Positions 3,371-52,909 are shown, counted from the stretch's first letter. The stretch: 52,909 bases of DNA from an uncultured Planctomycetia bacterium (GCA_964421015.1 CAYQUS010000006.1:47096-100004); one strand, 5' to 3'. Notes: generated by a model from the letters alone, not told the origin. Made by a program: numbers and translations.

Positions 3371-4450
3371 ATGGTAAAAAGACGAAAAACACGTACAGTC
3401 AATATCGGAAAAGTAGCTGTGGGTTCTGGTTCTCCTGTAAGCATTCAATCCATGGCAAAGACCGACACCAGAGATGTCGATGTCACGGTAAAGCAGATAA
3501 ACCGTCTGGGAGAGGCGGGCTGCGAGATAGTTCGTGTCGCTGTGAAGGATATGGACGCGGCCAAGGCGATCTCGTCCATAAAAAGCGAGATCAAGCTGCC
3601 GCTTGTAGCAGACATACATTACGATCACACACTTGCTCTTGAAGCCGTAAAACGCGGGGCCGATAAGATAAGGATAAATCCGGGTAACATCACTAAGCCT
3701 GAAGACGTTGAAAAAGTGATAGATGTCTGCGCTTCCAAAGGGATCCCGATCCGGATAGGGGCCAATTCCGGTTCGCTTCCCGAAAAGTTCTCCGGGTCAG
3801 TGACTCCTTCGGAAATAATGGCGCGGGGTGTCCTTAAATATCTTGAGATGTTCAGGAAAAAGAACTTTAACGACATAATCATATCGCTCAAAGCGTCGGA
3901 TGTTCCCGAGACAGTAGGGGCTTACAGAGCTCTGGCGGGAGAATGCGACTATCCTTTTCACGTCGGCGTTACAGCCGCGGGATCGAAAGAGACGGGTACT
4001 GTAAAGAGCGCTGTAGGCATAGGAGCGCTTCTTTTGGACGGTATCGGCGACACCATAAGAGTTTCGCTTACGGGCGATCCGGTAGAGGAGGTCGTAGCCG
4101 CAAGGAAGATACTTTCGTCTTCCGGCGCGCGGTCTTTCGGCCCGGAAGTCATCTCATGTCCGACCTGCGGAAGATGCCAGGTAGATCTTCTGTCCATTGC
4201 GGGAGAAGTTGAAAAAGCAGTTGAAGAACTTTGCTGTACGGGTAGTATAAAGCCTCGTAAATTCACCGTCGCTGTCATGGGATGCGAGGTCAACGGCCCC
4301 GGGGAATCCGAAGCCGCGGATATAGGCGTAGCTTTTGGCAAGGGGTCGGGAGCTATATTCAGGCGCGGCAAGATCGTAAGAACGGTCAAGGTTTCCGAAG
4401 CGGTCGGCGTTCTAATGGAGATGATTAGGGAGGAGTTGGGGGAGAATTAG
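3371..4450 (+). CDS. ispG: HMBPP synthase (4-hydroxy-3-methylbut-2-enyl diphosphate synthase)
   Basis: VSIQSM, PLVADIHYD, IRINPGNI, IGDTIRVSLT, SCPTCGRC and MGCEVNGPGE. Confidence 0.97.
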   Translation: MVKRRKTRTVNIGKVAVGSGSPVSIQSMAKTDTRDVDVTVKQINRLGEAGCEIVRVAVKDMDAAKAISSIKSEIKLPLVADIHYDHTLALEAVKRGADKIRINPGNITKPEDVEKVIDVCASKGIPIRIGANSGSLPEKFSGSVTPSEIMARGVLKYLEMFRKKNFNDIIISLKASDVPETVGAYRALAGECDYPFHVGVTAAGSKETGTVKSAVGIGALLLDGIGDTIRVSLTGDPVEEVVAARKILSSSGARSFGPEVISCPTCGRCQVDLLSIAGEVEKAVEELCCTGSIKPRKFTVAVMGCEVNGPGESEAADIGVAFGKGSGAIFRRGKIVRTVKVSEAVGVLMEMIREELGEN

Positions 4451-14100: not shown

Positions 14101-17100
14101 TGTTCTGGAATTTAAAGGAGGCAAATATCTTATTGCCGGCAAGGTTTTAGAGGACGGAGGAACTTACAGTGTCGGTCGCGGCTCTGAAAATTACATACGC
14201 GTCCTGAACGGGTCGGTTTCGAGGGAGCATGCGGTTATAAAAGTATATGATGGCAAAGTTTTCATCGAAGACAAGTCTTCGATGAACGGGACATTTGTGA
14301 ACGGAAAGAAAATAGCTTCCCCCACGGAGTCTAAGCCCGGACAGCGGAAGGAGGCAGCATCTTCATCTAGAGTGTACGCCGTTTTTAATAACTGGCAGAA
14401 GGGTCTTGTAAATATCGCGGGAAGCATGGACGAAGTCAAAGCGCACAATTATGATGACACCTCCATGTTCCATATCGTTCCGGTGGATGTGCCGCAGGAT
14501 GTCTACGTTGGGGCGCATCAATCCAGTATTATTAGCGCAAGGGCCGCCGCTGATATTGATAACGTTAAACCCGGGAGCCGAGTTCTTGTAATAGGTACAG
14601 GTATGGGACTTGAAGCGTATATAGCCATGGGAAGAGGGGCGCATGTCGACGCTGTCGATATAAATCCGTCGGCCTTAAAGTCCACGGAAAACCTGTGCGG
14701 CAAACTGCCACCGGAAGGCAGGGGAAGCCTTAGGACATTCCTGTACGATGTTATGCCCGGCGGGATAAGGGAGAACGCGCTCGCTGACGAATATGACCTT
14801 ATAATCTTCAATATGCCCCATTACGCGGCGCCGACAAGCGGAGATGATAAGGAAATTACCGCTACCAGGGATCCCGGCGGCCAGCTTATAGGTCCGACAT
14901 CTGAAATCGTAAAAACGCGTCTTGCCTCGGGAGGAAGGGCTGTTCTTGTTAATACCGAAGGGGAAAATGTTCGCAAGACCCTTGAAAGCCAGATCGGTCT
15001 TACGGTTTTTCCGGACCCGATCTACGGGATGGATCCGTCAATGGCCTATGTTGTGGAGAATGGCAATAACGCCATACTTAACGATCTTATCGATCTCCTT
15101 GGGATAGATGTATCTCGGAATTTTGGCGTCAGGAAACAGCTTGTAGCGCTCGCCGAACTTATCAGGCGTAAACAGCTCGCCGCGGGCGGCGTGAGCGTCC
15201 CAGAAGTAACAGAAGGGGATTTGGCCGGAATAAATATCCCCGACATAATAGTCAAAGTAAACCGCTTGAACGGAAAGACTCTCGGCATGCTGGGTATGGG
15301 CGGTATGATGCCAGGCGCGGCAAAAGCCCAGTCGCTCATGGTGAACCTCTTGAGCGGACGAGCGCCTGTTACAAATATGTTTTTGAGGGCATGGGGGGTA
15401 GTATCAACGCCTTTCCATGAGTTCGCGCATTATCTGGCCGCGCTTATGTTCGGCGCCAATCCGAAACTTTCAGTAAGCGGACTCTTTACAGGCGAGATAA
15501 CGATAGACCGGGCGCCTCCTTCGAAGGCGGCGACATACCTCATCTATTCCGCTGGCCTTTTAGCTAACCTTGCCCTTGCCGGAGCTTCAGCTTATTACCT
15601 TTTAAATTACGGACAGACAGTTTCAGTTTTTGCTTGGGTTCTTCTCACGTGGGTCGCGGCTGCGAATGCCGCCTCGGCGATAATTGAGCTTGTTGGCGCC
15701 CCATTCGGCAAGGGAGACCTGGCGAAGGCTAGGGCCAGGAGAGTCGACGACAGTGAAGTTTTTAAGGGGGACGTTAAAGAGCTTGTTTTAGATACCCGGG
15801 TATTGGGACTGATTAAATTTATGAACGAGTCTTCCGGGTTTTTGAAGTTGGATCATCCCATCGTTTCGAAACTGCAGGAGTATGTTGACAGAATGACAGG
15901 GCAAGGGATGAGAGCGCCCCGGCTTCTAATAGCTATCGACGGAGAATCTCCCGATGCCTTCAGAGTGCCGGGGAATATAGTGATAAATCTCGCGCTTATA
16001 AGAGCCCTGGACACCTTAGGCGAAGTGGTTTCGGTAATAGCTCATGAACTGGGACATGAGGAGGCGCCCGAAAAGGTCTTTAATAACATAGGTTCAGGCA
16101 GGATGCATGAACTTTCGGCTGATCATGATGCAGTGGAAAAAGTGACGGCTATGGATTTCCCGTCAAATTCCATGGAGAATGCTCTTAGAAAAATAATAAA
16201 ACCGCGGTCTTTTCAGGACGCTGTCCATGGTTCTTTGTCCCACAGGATCGTACCGATACTTGCCGGTTGGGCGTTGAACGACCTCGAGGCGAGGTACGGG
16301 GCTCTTTCCCGCGATGAGCAGTCTATCCCGGATACATGGAAATTCGGTATACAGAAAAGTGTTTACGAGAAGCTTATTTACGGTAACCCTAACAGGGAAT
16401 TTTACAGAGCTCTCGAAGGGGCTTCCTTCGATCTTGTTAAAGACACATTGGAGAAGATCATGAAGGATTCTCCCTTGGGTGAATATTCAGATACGCCTAA
16501 GAGGGGGGAACACGTACTTTCAGAGAAGGTGCTGGCTATGCTGAACAGGATGAATGCGATCCTGGAGGATACAGCCATAAAGGAGGGCTTGGGCGACGAT
16601 GAGAGAAATGCCATTTTTCTCGGGGCTACAAAGGTCATGAATGAGCCGGTCTTCAGGCCTCCGTATTCTGATAAAGGAATAGCTTATTTTGAGGACAGCG
16701 CGAAATGGAAGTATACGTTGATAGCCAGGGGTGACCACAAAAAAGCCACAAAAAGCGAAAGAGCTATTACGGCTATCATGAGGTCACGAATAGAGCAGTA
16801 TTTAAAGACCCTGGATCCTCTCAATCTAAGGGGCGAAATAACAGCGAAGCATTTTGCGTCCCCGGTCTATTTTTCTCCGTCCGCTCATTCCATAGAATTA
16901 ATGATCCACGACAAAGAAATAGCCAAGAATATTTTTGGAGTAGGGTACATTTCGGAAGAGTCGCCGATTTTTATCTCGAACATGATTTCTTTCCTTGAAA
17001 AATTCAATGGTGAAATGTCGGGTTATGAAAGGCAGAGTATCGTGGGCGGGATTTTTATTCGCTTTATAGAGCTTTACTGGGAGCGCAAGGCCTGGACTTT

Positions 17101-20100
17101 TAGCAGAGATAATGTGCTGGAGCTTATTTCCCAGCTTAGAGAATCTTTTAAGCTGGTTGAAGGCAATAGCCTTTTTGGGAAATTTTACAGCGAGATATCT
17201 ACCGAAGGGTGGGACTACAACAGGTTCTTTAAGTATATTGCCCCTGAATCGGGAGTTGTAGGGAAAGAGGAGTATGAAAGGCTGTTGTTCGGCAGAAAGG
17301 ATGAAAATTACGAGAGGCTGATGGATTGTTTCCGAAACCGCGATGAAGACGCTTTTATGGAGGTGCTGCGCATCTCGGGGGTCTATAAAACCCTGAAATA
17401 TCTTTCTAAAGAAGATTATCCCGGGACAGCCGAGATTTTCGCCGCCGATGGAAATCTGCCGGCCTGGGTAGTTTCGGTCTTGGAAAAAAGATGGGAAGAT
17501 ATAGATGAGTACAGTTTTGGGGAAATTAAAGCGCTTTTAAGCTCATCGCACGTTCCAATGATAAACGATTTAGTTGAATTGTACAAGGCGGTGGAGCCGC
17601 CTATTGCCAAGATCATCTCGGCGAGCCAGATAATCGCGGGCTTGCCGGTGGATGACCATGTAGAAAATTACCTGAGTATGTCAAAAGAATTTCTGGATTC
17701 GGCCTCTGTTTCGGCGGCGATCAGCTCTATGAGCGTCGAAAATCAGGGGCTCCTCTTCGCGGGATTGGCAGCGATATTCCGCGGAAAGTTCGATTTTTTC
17801 TATGAACTTGAGGTGGAGAGGTACGGGGCTGTAGATGACTACCTGAAAATGCAAGCCTGGACCGACTATATAAAATTGACCCAGGAAAAACTTAAACTTG
17901 AACCCTCTCTGGAAGGCCTGGTAAACACTTACGATCTGTTTGTCAGGTTAACATACGCAAATTTTTACGGATATCACAGGTATGACGATATGCTTTATGC
18001 GGGATTAAGCGAATACAGCTCCGGGTGGATGTCCGAGATCAATCAGGTCTTTTATGAATCGCTTCTGAGACTTTCCGACGAAGCGTTGGATGTGACAAAA
18101 GACCAGGACCTGGCCGTTAAATATTACCTGGATATCATGGATAGATTTCCGGCTTCCGAGACAAAGAGGGGCATCCTTGATATTTTGGCGAGGCGCCTTG
18201 TCGACAAACTGGACGAAGCGCATCTTTCAATGTTTTTTGAAAGACTTTCCAGCAAAGGACACCTCAGTAAAAACGTGTACAGTTACTTTGTGTCAAAACG
18301 GATAAACACTTTTGAAGACAGCGAAAAGATGTCAAAATTCATAAGGGACCGTTATGCCAGGATGCTTTCGGGAGAAGATATTATCCCGGCTTTTATCGCC
18401 GGCATGGATACCGGGGGGGACCAGGCTCTATCCCCCGAAACAGCCAGTGATATTTTTTCAGCCGCCATGCTTTCGGGGAAAGATGAAAAAGTCCTATGGG
18501 AAGCCCTGGAGACACACTGGTATCAGATTTACGTGGGCGGAGCCAAAAGGCTGCTCTATTCCTTCGAGGTTAGAGACGGAAGGATAGAGGTGGTGGGTCT
18601 GGGAAGGGACAATTTTGTTCCACTGAAAACTTTCGTCGATAGTGTCCTTGATATGAGTGAAAACAGCAAGCTGGCATTAATGGAAAGACTTCTTGTTTCT
18701 CCCAACGGTCTTTTGCACCATGAATCCGGCAGGAAGCGTTTTGTAGAGCTCATTAGAGAGAATATTCCGGGGTCCGACAGCCTTTCAGCGATATTGAAGG
18801 AAGCGGTTGGTTCGGTCGTGGACAATGTGGACGCCGAGAGGGTATTTATGATGTTCCGTGATGTGATCAGGCCGTTTTTTCTCAGAAGACAGGAAGGGTT
18901 TACCGTGGAAGGAGAGTTTCTGAAAATGCTGGCACTCAGAAATATATCCAGAGTTGACGAGGATAACTATATTAATGAGGATAGCGTTACGCGCAATCTT
19001 AATGGGTTAAGTCCTGAAGTCTTCATGTCCCTGATCCGCGGAGATATCGAGAGAGCTCCCCTTGCCGCGCGGATAAACTATAGCAAGACCAGAAACGACT
19101 TTCTCTCAAGGTTTGGAGAAAAATTAGGTGTCGGATCTCTCCCCGAGAGCGAGGTTCCGCCTTCGGATGCGGGTGCTTTGGACATATTGATACTCGCCGC
19201 GGAAAGCCTTGGGCCTATGGGGGTGAGATCCCTGCAGGTCATGGGGCAGTATATGGATATACCGGCGGAATATGAAACCAGGTTCCGGGAGGTTTATGAC
19301 AGTAATGAAGGCATAGATAAGTTCATAGCGTTTGATATTCTTAAGAAATCGGCTGAGAGGGACCCGGGTGTTAAATATTTTCTCGAAAACGAGCTTGTAA
19401 GTATAGGCGATAAACTGGGAGGGGGCTCCATCATGACGGCGTTCCTTATCAAGGTCAAGGACCCAGCCACGGGAAAGATAAGGGACGAGGTACTCAAGGT
19501 GCGAGCGCCCAATGCGGAGGTAAGGGTAGACGATACTTATGAAAAACTTATACGAGTGGTAAGAGACATGAAGACCAGGGCGACCGCTTCTAAAAAAGCC
19601 AACTACGAGATAGCCGAGCGGCTCCTTTCAGATATCAGGGATTGGATCAGGGACGATATAAACGATGAAACGTTCCTTGAGCTTGACCAGAAGTACGCTG
19701 AATTCCACAAGAATTACAGGGACAGCAGGGGTACCAGGGTAAGGATACCGGGAGCCTTTTCTCCAAACAATAGGGATGTCAAGAGGGAAGAGCTGGTTAG
19801 GGGAGAGACCCTGAACAGTCTTCTTCGCGAAGGGAGAGGTGAAATTTTAAAACCGGCCGTGCAGGCTGTGGTTGAGGATTTTGCCCGCACCCTGGTAAAT
19901 CCTGTTTTTAACGATTCCGACGGCGAAGAGGTATTTCTTCTCCATTCGGATATCCATTTTGGTAATGCCATGGTGGAACAAAAAGACCCCGCGTCTACCG
20001 AAGATCTTACAGTAGCCCTTATAGATCGTAATCTGTACCTCAGGCTTACGCGAAAAGAAGTTGATTTTATGCGCTCCTTACTGCTGGCGGAAAATACGTC

Positions 20101-48830: not shown

Positions 48831-48875
48831 TTGACAAAAACTTCAAAAAGTGATACTATCACGATAAGTGATACG
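48831..48875 (+). promoter_or_regulatory. Sigma70 promoter with an overlapping palindrome
   Basis: TTGACA (48831-36), 17 nt spacer, TACTAT (48854-59) with extended TG. Palindrome GTGATA-C-TATCAC at 48850-62; AAGTGATAC is repeated at 48848 and 48867. Confidence 0.7.
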
Positions 48876-48879
48876 AATC

Positions 48880-48894
48880 GGGGGGGGGGGGGGG
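48880..48894 (+). repeat. G15 homopolymer in the 5' UTR
   Basis: 15 consecutive G between the promoter and the RBS GAGGAGG (48904-10). Confidence 0.9.
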
Positions 48895-48915
48895 AATGTA
48901 TTTGAGGAGGATGAC

Positions 48916-51900
48916 ATGAGTCACGTATCCCATTTCCGCGTACCCCTTAAAATGATCTCGGCGGTTGTTGCCGGGATATTTTTATTTCAGGAAATAGTTT
49001 GGGCGGGCGATATTGTTTCGCTCATACAACCGGCTTCTGAGCCTGCTCCGAATTCATCTTCGGTGGAAGTCATCCAGTCCGGCCAGACCCAGGCAGAAAC
49101 TTTGATAGCGGCAAAAAACGCTATCGAGGACTTCTCCTTGCAGGTTTCTCCCGGAGCGGCGACGCTTAGTACCTCACATGGGATCGAATATGACAGAGAG
49201 GTTGTCGGGACTACGGGCTGGACTTTTTATTACCGGTCGGATGTTCTTGTCGAAAAAAGCCATGAAGACGGCAGGGCCTACGTTTACTCTTATGATGAAG
49301 CCGGGCGAATAAGCGCTTTCGACTACTATAAAGCCGGGGATGTTTTTTACTATACCCAGGAATATGACCGCGATGCGAATGGCAATGTTACGGCCGCAAG
49401 GCGCGTATTTTCGAACGGTAATACCTATCATTACACGCCTAATTGGAAGGTAACTCGGATAGACTATGCTGACGGGAGAGCCATTACCTATACATACGAC
49501 GCCGAATGGAAAGTAACGGGTCGCGTAATGTATTATGCGGCCGGCGGCGTGCAGTACTCTGAAACATATTCTTACGATGCTTCGGGCGCGCTTGAGGGAA
49601 TAACGAGAGCTTTCACCGGCGGCAATACTTACCATTATGCTGCCAACTGGAAAACCCTGCGCATAGACTATGCCGACGGGAGAGCCCTTACCTATACATA
49701 TGACGCCGAATGGAAAGTAACGGGCCGTGTAATGTATTATGCGCCCGGCGGCGTATATTACTCGGAAACCTATTTTTATGATGTTTCGGGCGAGTTAGAG
49801 GGTATAACGCGCCTGTTCGATAACGGCAATACCTACCATTACTCGCCGAACTGGAAGGTGATGAGAATAGATTACGCCGACGGCAGGGTACTCACTTATG
49901 TTTATGATGGGTCTTGGGGACTTTCTGAAAGGATAATGTACCGCGCCGACGGAACAAGGCAGTACAGATATACTTATGTTTCGGGAGTTCTCAGCGCTAA
50001 AGAGCTTTATTATATTTCAGGGAATCTTTCAAGTGTCACGTATACCGTTTCCGATGAGAAAGGGTTTGCGTATTACAGGTATGTAGATGAAGATCTTAAC
50101 GGCACCGGGATAGGACGGCTTAAGCTTGCGCGTCTCGCCGAACGGAACGATGCCGGGGAACTTGCGTTCGAGTATAGTTACAGCGGCAGCACGATGTATG
50201 TTAATTCATACAGCGAGGTGTCGGGAGGGGATCTTATTGCCGAATACCGGTACAATCAAGAAGGAGTTCTTGCCCGCAAGATCGATCACGTGAGCGGAAC
50301 GACTTTTATGTATTATGCCGTAAGCGGCAGGCTTTTTTCCATGGAGACGTCGGTTCCGGACGAGAGCGGGAACACTTTATACCTTTATATGGATGAGGAT
50401 TTTTACGCGGCAAGCGAACACCCGGCGGGGTATTACGGAAGGGTGTCGGCTTTTATGCGTACGGAGCCTGACAGCGATAGCGCAGTGACTTTCAATGTCG
50501 CGTATGACAACGAGTCCAGCGACATGGCCCGTACGGTAAGCGGAACGAGCGGTGAAACTATTCTTGTCTCCCGATATCTCTATGCCGATACCGGCAGTCT
50601 TGTGTCGAAAACAACGTTTTATGAAAGCGGTCTTACCGAAAGCGTGACTTTTTCGGTGCCGGACGCGGAAGGATTTGTTTACTATCATTATGCGGATACG
50701 GAATTTGCCGCCACCGGACAAGGTCTGGCCGACATTAAGATACTTTCGGTTCCAGATCCTGACGGATCTATCGCGTATTCGTACGAATACCACGAAACCG
50801 GTATAGTCCAGAGGAGAACCGGGTATGCCGAAGCCGACTATTCTCTGTCCCGCGAGCCCGTAATATCGGCAGTTACAGCTATATACGAATATGACGAGAC
50901 AGGCCGGCCTGTGGTCCATTTTGATGAGATCATCGGTTCTTATGGTATACGCCGGGAGCTCGACGGGTCTCTGTTGACATACATGCTCGATGGCTCCGGC
51001 GGGTCATATTTACACACTGTATCCAGCGCTGAAGGCGGTTTTCTGGATGTTTATGAAAGGGACGACGCGATGGCGCTTGTCTCGGTGCGGCGCACATATG
51101 ACGACGGTGTTATAGAACTTTATGAGCCTATGGACGGCGAAGGGAACTATCTTAGGCTTATTGAGAAAAAAATCCCCGAAAGGCCGTTCATAAAAGGTGT
51201 GAACCTGCCATGGATGAATTATGGTTACGATCTGGGAGAACTTCCTGGGAGCGACCTTCATTACGGGTTTTCTTCGCGGGAGGCCGATCTTTACAGTAAG
51301 TTCGATATGTGGAAAGGTTCCTATGTAAGGGTATTTCTTTTTACCGATCTCAGGTCCTCTATAGAGTTTGACACGGAAGGGTTTGCTGTCGGGTTTACCG
51401 ACAGGGTTTTTGAGGATATGCGCTCGCTCCTGGACGCGGCTAAGACATTTGGGGTAAAACTTGTTCCCGTGCTTTTTGATTACGGCATAGCCGACGGAGT
51501 TACGCATGAAGGCGAGTACGAAGTCGGCGAGAACCCGGGTGTTATCCTTGATGACGCGAAAAAAGCTGCTTTGATGGATGTCCTGTCCGGATTCTTCGAA
51601 GAGTTCGCCGCAAACGATGCCGTTTATGCCTGGGACATTATCAACGAGCCGGAGTGGTCGGTAGATTCCGGTACGGTAAATCTTGAAGCGATGCGCGTTT
51701 TTGTGTCAGGGATGTCTGGCCTCATAAGGTCGAAGGCACCCGAGGCGCTTGTAACACTGGGCAGCCGCAACAGGACGGATATGGCGCTTAATTGGCAGGG
51801 TCTTGGGCTTGATATTTATCAGTACCATTATTACGACCGTTTCGAGGATGAAGGTTATCCCCTGGACTATCCGGCCGGGGACCTGGCCTTAGACGGCCCG

Positions 51901-52909
51901 GTGATAGCGGGCGAGCTCGAACCCACATTTCCGTCCGATAAGCTCGATACTCTTTTTGACAATTCCTACGACGGCGGATTTTTGTGGCAGGACGATCGGT
52001 ACTCGATATCCGACTGGGAAAAGGAGGAGCTCTCGAGCTGGTTCAGGGGAGAGACTATCACGTACGAATACCATCCTTCGGGCGTTAAAAGTCTTGAAGT
52101 ATCGTCGGATGGTACCGAGAAGGAATTCGAGGATTCGGAACTTAACCTTCTTCTTAAGGTGACTTATACCTCTACGGGCGCTTACAAAGAGTATTCCTAT
52201 TATGATGGCACTTGTAATGTAAGCGAGATAGTTTTTTATCTCTCTGACGGGTCTATTTTTATGGGCGAGGAGTACGGATATGAAGGTGACCTTACGGCGA
52301 GGAGCATGTATTACGCATCGGGCATTCTTAAAAGTGTTACTCGTACAGACGGCACATGGGAAAACTACTCTGAAACCGGAGAGCTTACTGAAAGCGGCGA
52401 AACTATCGCCGATACGGAAGTTACTTATGACGGGACAGGCAGGATAATTAAAGTAAAAGTTTCCGGCAGGGAAGAAACAAGAAAATACGTCGAGCCTGAA
52501 GGTATGGATGTGCTTTACACTTACGCGTTAACGGGCGGAATCGTAACCGGAGTTTTTGAAGGATACTATGACGGCATAGAGCTTTTGTCGTCGAGTTACC
52601 CTGACACTGCCGGCGAGGTCACGGTTACGTATGACGGCGGCATAAAAGCCGGTTATTCGGGCGGGATGATAAAGTCGCTTTCGGTGGAAGATGGCTTTGT
52701 GAACTTTTATTCCGATACTTCTACGGTATGTCAGAACGGCGCGGACGGTACGCTTTATGTTTTTGAAGCAGGGTATCTTTCGCGTGTAGTGACCCCGCTT
52801 GGCAACGTTTACGATTTTACGGTGATCGAGGACGCCGCCACGGTAACCGTAACGCCCGAAAGCGCGGTTATAGGCGATGCGTTATTCGGTCTTTCCGGAG
52901 GCAAGTTCT
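48916..52909 (+). CDS. Large exported YD/RHS-like repeat protein with an embedded GH5-like domain (partial, >1330 aa, runs off window)
   Basis: Hand translation from ATG 48916 is open to the window end. Signal-like MSHVSHFRVPLKMISAVVAGIFLFQEIVWA; Tyr-rich beta repeats (YSYDEAGRI, YTYDAEWKV, YEYDETGRP); clan GH-A motifs at 51181-52040 (KGVNLPW, WDIINEPE, QYHYY, IAGE). Confidence 0.9.
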   Translation, partial: MSHVSHFRVPLKMISAVVAGIFLFQEIVWAGDIVSLIQPASEPAPNSSSVEVIQSGQTQAETLIAAKNAIEDFSLQVSPGAATLSTSHGIEYDREVVGTTGWTFYYRSDVLVEKSHEDGRAYVYSYDEAGRISAFDYYKAGDVFYYTQEYDRDANGNVTAARRVFSNGNTYHYTPNWKVTRIDYADGRAITYTYDAEWKVTGRVMYYAAGGVQYSETYSYDASGALEGITRAFTGGNTYHYAANWKTLRIDYADGRALTYTYDAEWKVTGRVMYYAPGGVYYSETYFYDVSGELEGITRLFDNGNTYHYSPNWKVMRIDYADGRVLTYVYDGSWGLSERIMYRADGTRQYRYTYVSGVLSAKELYYISGNLSSVTYTVSDEKGFAYYRYVDEDLNGTGIGRLKLARLAERNDAGELAFEYSYSGSTMYVNSYSEVSGGDLIAEYRYNQEGVLARKIDHVSGTTFMYYAVSGRLFSMETSVPDESGNTLYLYMDEDFYAASEHPAGYYGRVSAFMRTEPDSDSAVTFNVAYDNESSDMARTVSGTSGETILVSRYLYADTGSLVSKTTFYESGLTESVTFSVPDAEGFVYYHYADTEFAATGQGLADIKILSVPDPDGSIAYSYEYHETGIVQRRTGYAEADYSLSREPVISAVTAIYEYDETGRPVVHFDEIIGSYGIRRELDGSLLTYMLDGSGGSYLHTVSSAEGGFLDVYERDDAMALVSVRRTYDDGVIELYEPMDGEGNYLRLIEKKIPERPFIKGVNLPWMNYGYDLGELPGSDLHYGFSSREADLYSKFDMWKGSYVRVFLFTDLRSSIEFDTEGFAVGFTDRVFEDMRSLLDAAKTFGVKLVPVLFDYGIADGVTHEGEYEVGENPGVILDDAKKAALMDVLSGFFEEFAANDAVYAWDIINEPEWSVDSGTVNLEAMRVFVSGMSGLIRSKAPEALVTLGSRNRTDMALNWQGLGLDIYQYHYYDRFEDEGYPLDYPAGDLALDGPVIAGELEPTFPSDKLDTLFDNSYDGGFLWQDDRYSISDWEKEELSSWFRGETITYEYHPSGVKSLEVSSDGTEKEFEDSELNLLLKVTYTSTGAYKEYSYYDGTCNVSEIVFYLSDGSIFMGEEYGYEGDLTARSMYYASGILKSVTRTDGTWENYSETGELTESGETIADTEVTYDGTGRIIKVKVSGREETRKYVEPEGMDVLYTYALTGGIVTGVFEGYYDGIELLSSSYPDTAGEVTVTYDGGIKAGYSGGMIKSLSVEDGFVNFYSDTSTVCQNGADGTLYVFEAGYLSRVVTPLGNVYDFTVIEDAATVTVTPESAVIGDALFGLSGGKF

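Follow-up and report, generated by a model that had tools for sequence, protein, structure and literature searches.

The window analysed here is a 52,909-nucleotide (nt) stretch of DNA from an uncultured Planctomycetia bacterium (GCA_964421015.1 CAYQUS010000006.1:47096-100004), and the subject of this study is the large open reading frame (ORF) at its 3' end, which combines Tyr-rich YD-type repeats with an internal glycoside hydrolase family 5 (GH5) domain. On the plus strand, positions 48916-52909 translate into 1331 sense codons with zero stops, and the frame runs past the end of the window; upstream it is bounded by an in-frame TAA at 48865. A random stop-free run of 1331 codons at 48.9% GC has a probability of about 1e-29. 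The ORF list of the window lacks this frame only because it leaves out ORFs that run past the window end. An earlier note, made from the sequence alone, had already pointed to an unlisted large ORF open to the window end, and this was confirmed by the translation and by a ribosome-binding site, GAGGAGG (48905-48911, plus strand), read from the sequence 4 nt before the ATG at 48916. The frame represents the 5' part of a gene and is colinear with the 3731-amino-acid (aa) ORF of the relative L003.

The N-terminus of the encoded protein (aa 1-30; 48916-49005, plus strand) resembles a signal peptide in its sequence features and its conservation. In the segment M1-A30, R8/K12 are followed by the hydrophobic stretch MISAVVAGIFLF and then by a predicted cleavage site between VWA and GD, as read from the sequence. 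These elements, together with a core that is kept in relatives, uphold the signal peptide proposed by the earlier note, and the conserved N-terminus suggests that the protein is exported by the Sec pathway. The core, (I/L)FLFxQI(V/A)WA(G/S), is common to the large Candidatus Omnitrophota proteins L002, L003, L004, L006, L017 and L024, and in the closest relatives the motif E(T/M)L(I/V)xxKNxIEDF is conserved after it; the core is lineage-specific and may constitute a dedicated sorting signal. The signal-peptide-like segment is succeeded by a Ser/Pro/Ala-rich linker (aa 31-98; 49006-49209, plus strand) with 0% Tyr, which carries the conserved motif ETLIAAKNAIEDF, also kept in L003 and L002.

YD-type repeats on both sides of an internal domain

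The Tyr content of the protein is 12.2% over aa 91-755, 5.8% over aa 756-1050 and 8.9% over aa 1051-1331. Residues 105-134 match the YD_repeat model TIGR01643 with 23.4 bits (cutoff 15.8), and the Pfam RHS_repeat model PF05593 scores 20.4, slightly below its cutoff of 22. A database search with the repeat region matched 80 RHS/YD proteins with E values down to 2e-16, and the array on the N-terminal side aligns in register over hundreds of residues with the bona fide RHS protein P0004 (pairwise E 2e-15). The Tyr-rich YD-like repeats that the earlier note described ahead of the internal domain are thus genuine, by composition, by a model match above cutoff and by alignment to RHS proteins.

Two classes of repeat could be distinguished. 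Their registers were set by eye and with Tandem Repeats Finder (TRF), and a self-BLAST of the protein gave nothing off the diagonal. Class A (aa ~99-365; 49210-50010, plus strand), delimited by TIGR01643, TRF and the alignment to P0004, consists of three to four YD-type units of 68 aa, each made of about three YD hairpins. Within it, a tandem repeat is detectable in the DNA at 49414-49883 (period 204, 2.3 copies, 78% match), and the class A units are recent duplicates at the DNA level. Class B (aa ~365-670; 50008-50925, plus strand) comprises three Tyr-rich units of ~100 aa that are in register with each other and follow the consensus YYxSGxLxS...PDxxGxxYYxYxDExF...GxGR. It recurs in the units of the relative P0001 and in many other family members, with the best stretches at query positions 425-537, and is specific to the GH5/YD family to which the window protein belongs.

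The last segment before the internal domain (aa ~670-755; 50923-51180, plus strand) is a conserved beta-hairpin lead-in that accompanies the barrel described below; it is defined by AlphaFold modelling and by BLAST high-scoring segment pairs (HSPs), which start at query positions 615-700 even in alignments to relatives low in Tyr. After the barrel, beta-hairpin or YD-like repeats resume (aa 1047-1331; 52054-52908, plus strand) and continue past the window. Their Tyr content, their appearance in the AlphaFold model and motifs such as YEYHPSGVK at aa 1050 and VTYDGTGRI agree with the earlier note, which had them restart at this place. A model of the barrel with its flanks predicts antiparallel beta hairpins over ~90 aa before the barrel, with a predicted local distance difference test (pLDDT) score of 56-90, and over ~140 aa after it (pLDDT 65-90). 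When this flank-barrel-flank model was submitted to Foldseek, zero solved structures aligned credibly past the barrel, and the long alignments had a root-mean-square deviation (rmsd) of more than 14 Å.

A GH5 barrel with a conserved active site

The array is interrupted at aa 756-1046 (51181-52053, plus strand) by a (beta/alpha)8 barrel of GH5, in clan GH-A, which was recognised by phmmer, a family profile, AlphaFold and Foldseek and which resembles the mannanases of subfamily GH5_10. A phmmer search of PDB sequences returned solely GH5 endo-beta-1,4-mannanases, with E values of 8e-14 for 2C0H and 1e-13 for 3VUP, and the alignments to these two span both the NEPE motif and the GE nucleophile. 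A family profile was built from 23 relatives (alignment A1) and matched 2C0H over its full length with E 5.6e-51. The top 16 PDB matches of this profile are GH5 mannanases, of which the first four are solved GH5_10 enzymes (1e-44 to 1e-51) and the next twelve other GH5 enzymes; GH5_7 and others score 1e-16 or weaker.

An AlphaFold model of the barrel made with alignment A1 contains eight strand/helix units and has a pLDDT of 86 and a predicted template modelling (pTM) score of 0.85. Its best Foldseek matches are 3VUP, 4OOZ, 5Y6T and 2C0H, with TM scores of 0.70-0.74 and a probability of 1.0, and the longer second model retrieved the same GH5_10 structures at an rmsd of 3.5-4.5 Å. The earlier note had placed a TIM-barrel domain at 51181-52040 (aa 756-1042), in good agreement with the modelled barrel at aa ~757-1046, and had staked its reading on a (beta/alpha)8 fold with two opposed Glu residues; the domain is confidently modelled as a TIM barrel, in which E911 terminates strand beta4 and E1000 strand beta7.

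The predicted general acid/base, Glu911 (51646-51648), lies in an NEPE motif (51643-51654, plus strand) that was assigned from its invariance, the alignment to 2C0H and 3VUP, and the model. The motif (N171-E172-P173-E174) is invariant across the 23 relatives, and N910-E911 follow model strand 166-171 (beta4). The predicted nucleophile, Glu1000 (51913-51915, plus strand), lies in the sequence VIAGE at the end of beta7 and rests on conservation, alignment and model: it is kept in at least 90% of the relatives, is aligned to the GE of 2C0H and 3VUP, and stands at the end of model strand 257-262. Residues R805, N910-E911, H971, Y973, E1000 and W1024 are invariant or near-invariant in 23-26 relatives, down to 26% identity, and the beta3 position is occupied by Asp (D855), where GH5 has His or Asn. 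The Glu of WDIINEPE at 51646, the YHYY sequence (H971) and the Glu of VIAGE at 51913 were all found where the earlier note had put them, and its view that both Glu residues are catalytic is borne out, as each aligns with a catalytic Glu of GH5 mannanases. Judged from the sequences and the model, the domain is an apparently active member of GH5/clan GH-A with Glu911 as putative acid/base and Glu1000 as putative nucleophile.

The best matches of the barrel in both sequence and structure are the GH5_10 mannanases, here compared through Mytilus edulis MeMan5A (2C0H), Aplysia kurodai AkMan (3VUP) and the enzymes of Eisenia fetida (5Y6T) and Cryptopygus antarcticus (4OOU). Common to them are the (beta/alpha)8 fold, the N-terminal motif (N/G)xNxxWxNYGxDxG, NEP at beta4, H-x-Y after beta6, GE at beta7 and Trp at beta8. 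Proximity to these characterised enzymes, at ~21-25% identity, suggests a GH5_10-like enzyme and possibly a mannanase. These four are stand-alone animal digestive enzymes of ~350 aa, whereas the window module is placed inside a bacterial repeat protein of several thousand residues.

The bacterial relatives of the barrel form a large clade with members in Omnitrophota, Vicinamibacterales, Chloroflexota, Elusimicrobiota and Nannocystis, and this clade is much nearer to GH5_10, a small and mostly metazoan subfamily, than to any other solved GH5 enzyme. Its position beside GH5_10 may be relevant to the idea that the mannanases of animals had a bacterial origin (PMC5576741).

Relatives, host lineage and gene neighbourhood

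A scan of the genome collection yielded 360 relatives, the closest with 40-58% identity, and none closer than 58%. The closest relatives are nearly all from metagenome-assembled genomes (MAGs) of Candidatus Omnitrophota or from bins labelled Planctomycetia, and in the Omnitrophota MAGs the GH5 module is found inside ORFs of 1,000 to more than 6,000 aa. An exhaustive HMMER search of 1.84 billion cluster representatives gave 1675 matches at E<=1e-3, 167 of them at E<=1e-30; many are proteins of 1.4-6.4 kaa with GH5 in an internal position, and all have at most ~52% identity save one fragment of 212 aa. The window protein is thus a member of an unnamed, widespread family that unites two known elements in an unusual way.

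This architecture is seen in P0001, L003, L002, L004, L005 and P0083 as well as in many proteins of 1.4-6.4 kaa. P0001, a complete protein of 1613 aa from an Omnitrophota MAG, has repeats, GH5 and repeats in this order, and a recognisable toxin was not found in it. Between L003 (3731 aa) and the window protein, colinearity extends from the signal peptide as far as aa 1181, at 36% identity over 1313 aa, and L004 and L005 have 41-46% identity to the part after the barrel, out to aa ~1303-1328. HSP boundaries show that a cassette of aa ~670-1060, comprising the beta lead-in and the barrel, is common to differing scaffolds, and domain shuffling is therefore implied. Several paralogues occur per genome (L003 with L004, L020 with L040, and L018 with L038).

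The locus L024 (CAYSJU010000005.1, 1-18847) has the gene order of the window, namely cmk, plsC, rpsA (67% identity), DUF2148 on the minus strand and then a large ORF. This gene order and the relatives together point to a Candidatus Omnitrophota bacterium as the probable host. The large ORF of L024 encodes 5101 aa with low-Tyr flanks, two GH5 copies (aa 2153-2447 and 3767-4203) and a NUDIX domain near the C-terminus; in the window, a second GH5 copy was not found. Comparison of the two loci suggests that the position is conserved and that the architecture is diverging rapidly.

The continuation of the window gene was sought in three ways. Look-ups of the exact proteins of two adjacent genes retrieved no contig, metagenome contigs scanned for an exact 40-nt sequence gave no match, and a protein-level metagenome scan returned relatives of at most 36% identity only. 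The part of L003 that lies after the barrel, which probably indicates what follows in the window gene past the window end, comprises, in this order, further hairpin repeats, two beta-sandwich modules, a coiled coil, a C39-like domain, transmembrane (TM)-like segments and a C-terminal domain. In detail, aa 2460-3731 (nt ~14900-18724) hold the coiled coil followed by a Peptidase_C39-like domain at aa 2769-2866 (weak, 26 bits), and aa 2889-3070 consist of Gly- and hydrophobic-rich TM-like segments, after which an end domain of ~480 aa completes the protein. L002 has the same layout. Searches of the downstream parts of L003 against Pfam, NCBIfam and PDB gave the weak Peptidase_C39 match and one RHS repeat only, and the C-terminal domain has no PDB relatives.

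The two beta-sandwich modules of L003 (aa ~1950-2340) are two copies of a module that resembles an insert of stand-alone GH5 relatives (KGEAFxDLRY...FDPxR..GVK). In many of these stand-alone proteins (P0089, P0090, P0093, P0099, P0100 and others), a beta-sandwich-like module of ~170 aa is inserted between beta1 and beta2, with the consensus KGEAFxDLRYHAP...NG(I/L)Q(I/L)FVKD...FDPT(R/K)(I/V)xxxG(V/L)K (columns ~230-430 of alignment A1). Pfam and PDB sequence searches with the inserted module were without match, and from its sequence and placement it is probably a novel carbohydrate-binding module (CBM).

The hallmarks of RHS toxins were sought in the fragment and in complete relatives. The PxxxxDPxGL motif and the RHS core (PF03527, TIGR03696) are absent from the 1331-aa fragment, in line with the earlier note, which had seen no core so far, and both are also absent from the eight complete relatives P0001, L003, L027, L033, L036, L038, L044 and L024. 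Neither the fragment nor the complete relatives match the YD-shell model PF25023 or DUF6531 (PF20148), unlike nearly all of the retrieved RHS proteins, which do match PF25023/PF20148. The neighbours of the gene in the window, which covers its upstream side, are housekeeping genes, including cdsA, dxr, rseP, ispG, proS, rimP, nusA, infB, trpS and scpAB, further pheA, aroF, tyrA, cmk, plsC and rpsA, together with genes for a MerR protein, a GMC oxidoreductase and DUF2148. No VgrG, PAAR, type VI secretion system (T6SS) or immunity genes are present among these neighbours or at the loci of nine relatives, where the adjoining genes are unrelated housekeeping or regulatory ones, and the window holds no secretion locus. 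A conserved partner gene beside the family members was also considered and dropped, as the neighbours are unrelated among the relatives examined. Because RHS core, YD-shell, PAAR/VgrG and immunity context are absent from the fragment and from complete relatives, the window protein is therefore regarded as a YD-repeat scaffold that displays an enzyme and not as a classical encapsulating RHS toxin.

Interpretation and other features of the window

Taken as a whole, we consider it fairly probable that the window encodes a Sec-exported giant modular protein of an Omnitrophota host, in which a competent retaining GH5 enzyme is carried between YD-hairpin arrays acting as a non-shell scaffold. To judge from its colinear relatives, the window protein would be the N-terminal third of a protein that probably has ~3,700 aa or more. 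The YD-type repeats would hold the enzyme outside the cytoplasm as an extended scaffold, a spacer or an array that binds glycans, and they would do so in a presumably open geometry, without the closed toxin-encapsulating shell of the RHS/Tc type. The enzyme would cut a beta-1,4-mannan-like (beta-linked) glycan by double displacement, Glu911 serving as acid/base and Glu1000 as nucleophile. It may act on glycans in the envelope of a cell used as prey or host, or on an environmental or matrix polysaccharide. The earlier note had likewise proposed that the enzyme is displayed at the surface and degrades prey or host glycans or matrix, which is a reasonable suggestion that fits the Omnitrophota context.

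Several points weigh against this account. The window holds the N-terminal third, and a C-terminal toxin or anchor could sit in the missing 3' two-thirds. A Sec signal by itself is insufficient for surface display in a diderm cell, and the TM-like segments near the C-terminus of L003 complicate the topology. AlphaFold confidence is low past ~100-140 aa on either side of the barrel. The Pfam Cellulase model PF00150 misses the barrel even at E<=1, and searches of Pfam and NCBIfam with the barrel segment alone gave no match. Several relatives, however, have precomputed PF00150 matches, and because of these and of the family profile E value of 5.6e-51, the miss is attributed to divergence and not to non-membership. 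At an identity of ~21-25% to characterised mannanases the substrate could differ, and by 2017 no bacterial member of GH5_10 had been characterised (PMC5576741).

The missing 3' end and the genuine YD homology could also be accommodated by a classical RHS/YD polymorphic toxin, with a closed YD shell that encloses its cargo, either the GH5 domain or a C-terminal domain beyond the window, for delivery to a target cell. We regard this as highly improbable, given that RHS core, aspartyl-protease motif, YD-shell, DUF6531 and PAAR are lacking in the fragment and the eight complete relatives, that the N-terminus is of the Sec type, that VgrG, T6SS and immunity neighbours are absent, and that the repeats stand on both sides of the barrel, rather than the barrel following a core. 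A non-catalytic adhesin, whose GH5-like barrel would serve for binding only, as a lectin-like pseudo-enzyme, would be in keeping with the failure of the Pfam GH5 model and with the fact that giant repeat proteins are often adhesins. It appears very unlikely, as all catalytic residues (R, NE, H, Y, E, W) are invariant or near-invariant down to 26% identity, as expected of an active enzyme. An enzyme that trims the cell's own exopolysaccharide or surface glycan, like PslG, BcsZ or PelA, and is anchored by its repeats, would agree with the conserved active site and the apparent export; in addition, a GGDEF protein and two-component regulators are encoded upstream of P0001 and L036, and a weak PMT_2-like glycosyltransferase match lies downstream in L027. 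Such self-directed remodelling of matrix or envelope is nevertheless improbable in our view: the window has no exopolysaccharide-synthesis operon, the neighbours are all housekeeping genes, and the paralogues per genome and the two GH5 copies of L024 better fit an offensive or diversified role.

Polysaccharide foraging deserves more weight, although it too seems rather unlikely. Here a cell-associated or secreted mannanase or glucanase would digest environmental beta-mannan of plant, algal or microbial origin for nutrition, and the repeats would act as a long tether or an array that binds the substrate, comparable to multimodular cellulases. The closest characterised enzymes are indeed digestive endo-beta-1,4-mannanases, free-living Acidobacteriota, Chloroflexota and Nannocystis have stand-alone relatives from the same GH5 clade, many of them with the CBM-like insert, and the orthologue L003 has two copies of the CBM-like module downstream. 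Yet no sugar transporter, polysaccharide utilization locus or mannan-catabolic genes adjoin the gene, whether in the window or among the relatives, and the giant repeat-embedded architecture is found chiefly in Omnitrophota, which are host-dependent or predatory according to the literature. A more specific and equally tentative idea is that the YD repeats build no cocoon but an open, rigid beta-helical stalk or tubule with the GH5_10-like glycanase in its shaft, used as a contact weapon by predatory or epibiotic ultra-small Omnitrophota to breach the surface glycans of their prey, and that the GH5 cassette is shuffled between giant scaffolds. If true, such an enzyme on a filament would represent a new use of RHS-type repeats and provide a catalytic handle on Omnitrophota predation.

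The favoured reading, an exported enzyme on a non-shell repeat scaffold, can be placed between several known systems. With RHS/YD proteins such as the Tc toxin TcB/TcC, T6SS Rhs effectors, WapA and the teneurins, the window family shares hairpin repeats that are homologous by sequence, large size and an extracytoplasmic location (predicted for the window protein). It differs from them in having no core with autoproteolytic aspartyl protease, YD-shell, plug or PAAR/VgrG, and its complete relatives have no toxin/immunity pair; moreover, the array of the window protein is interrupted by an enzyme and contains an extra repeat class with a period of ~100 aa. Multimodular bacterial glycanases tethered to the cell surface, for example the GH5-Fn3-CBM2 mannanase SACTE_2347 (PMC3978015), are likewise secreted and combine GH5 with non-catalytic modules. 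Their usual partners are CBM, Fn3, Ig and SLH modules in terminal positions, whereas in the window protein the enzyme is flanked by YD repeats, and the protein exceeds such glycanases in size by an order of magnitude.

Omnitrophota are abundant nanobacteria, for the most part uncultured, that are suspected predators or parasites of other microbes, and to our knowledge the annotation of their huge proteins is nearly nil. Within giant proteins of this phylum, the window family provides a catalytic module that can be assayed and whose active-site residues are identifiable, and expression of the GH5_10-like module would be a direct test of which glycans Omnitrophota cut. The family also exemplifies the employment of RHS/YD repeats outside the toxin-cocoon paradigm. 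The giant proteins of the Archaeovorin and Dockerin types (West-Roberts et al. 2023, 10.1101/2023.11.21.568195) offer a further comparison. For these, RHS-like open antiparallel beta-helix tubules and carbohydrate-active domains, e.g. a GH76-like fold, have been predicted, and a role in attacking the envelopes of other cells has been proposed (10.1101/2023.11.21.568195). The possible prey-envelope target of the window enzyme draws on this Omnitrophota literature (10.1101/2023.11.21.568195; 10.64898/2026.06.07.730766). The window family is similar in phylum (as far as the host of the window is correctly assigned), in signal peptide and TM features, in long unannotated beta-rich regions and in embedded carbohydrate-active domains. 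On the other hand, the giants have at least 30,000 aa and are usually encoded beside type II secretion system or pilus loci, whereas the window family has ~1.6-6.4 kaa and is encoded among housekeeping genes. GH5, mannanase and YD repeats are unmentioned both in that study and in a 2026 survey (10.64898/2026.06.07.730766), and no paper among the ten best matches of a text search has a YD repeat together with GH5 or a mannanase.

Upstream of the gene, a consensus scan located a promoter-like site, TTGACA-17-TACTAT with TG upstream (48831-48859, plus strand; 10/12 match), and the same layout, as TTGACA-17-TG-TAAAAT, precedes L002, L003 and L004, which are the closest relatives. Between the -10 box and the ribosome-binding site, the 5' untranslated region (UTR) contains a homopolymer of 15 G residues (48880-48894, plus strand; read from the sequence), the sole homopolymer longer than 9 in the 53-kb window. 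L002, L003 and L004 have the same promoter/UTR layout but just G3-G5 at this position. The G15 run could be a slippage-prone tract, a minimal-length three-tetrad G-quadruplex or an assembly artefact. A conserved RNA structure of the 5' UTR around the G-run was dropped as a candidate, since a better fold than that of the shuffled versions was obtained for only one of the four sequences.

Elsewhere in the window, an ORF at 8153-31654 (plus strand) with a GTG start encodes 7833 aa and is located between a FAD/NAD oxidoreductase gene and rimP-nusA. Pfam searches of its product gave an FHA domain (aa 2005-2063), a Peptidase_M48 segment (aa 2574-2645) and a sub-threshold GT9 match only, and similarity to the GH5/YD protein was not found. 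Over the whole window (1-52909) the plus strand carries nearly all genes and the GC skew is positive in every 2-kb bin, and the entire stretch appears to lie on the leading strand of one replichore.

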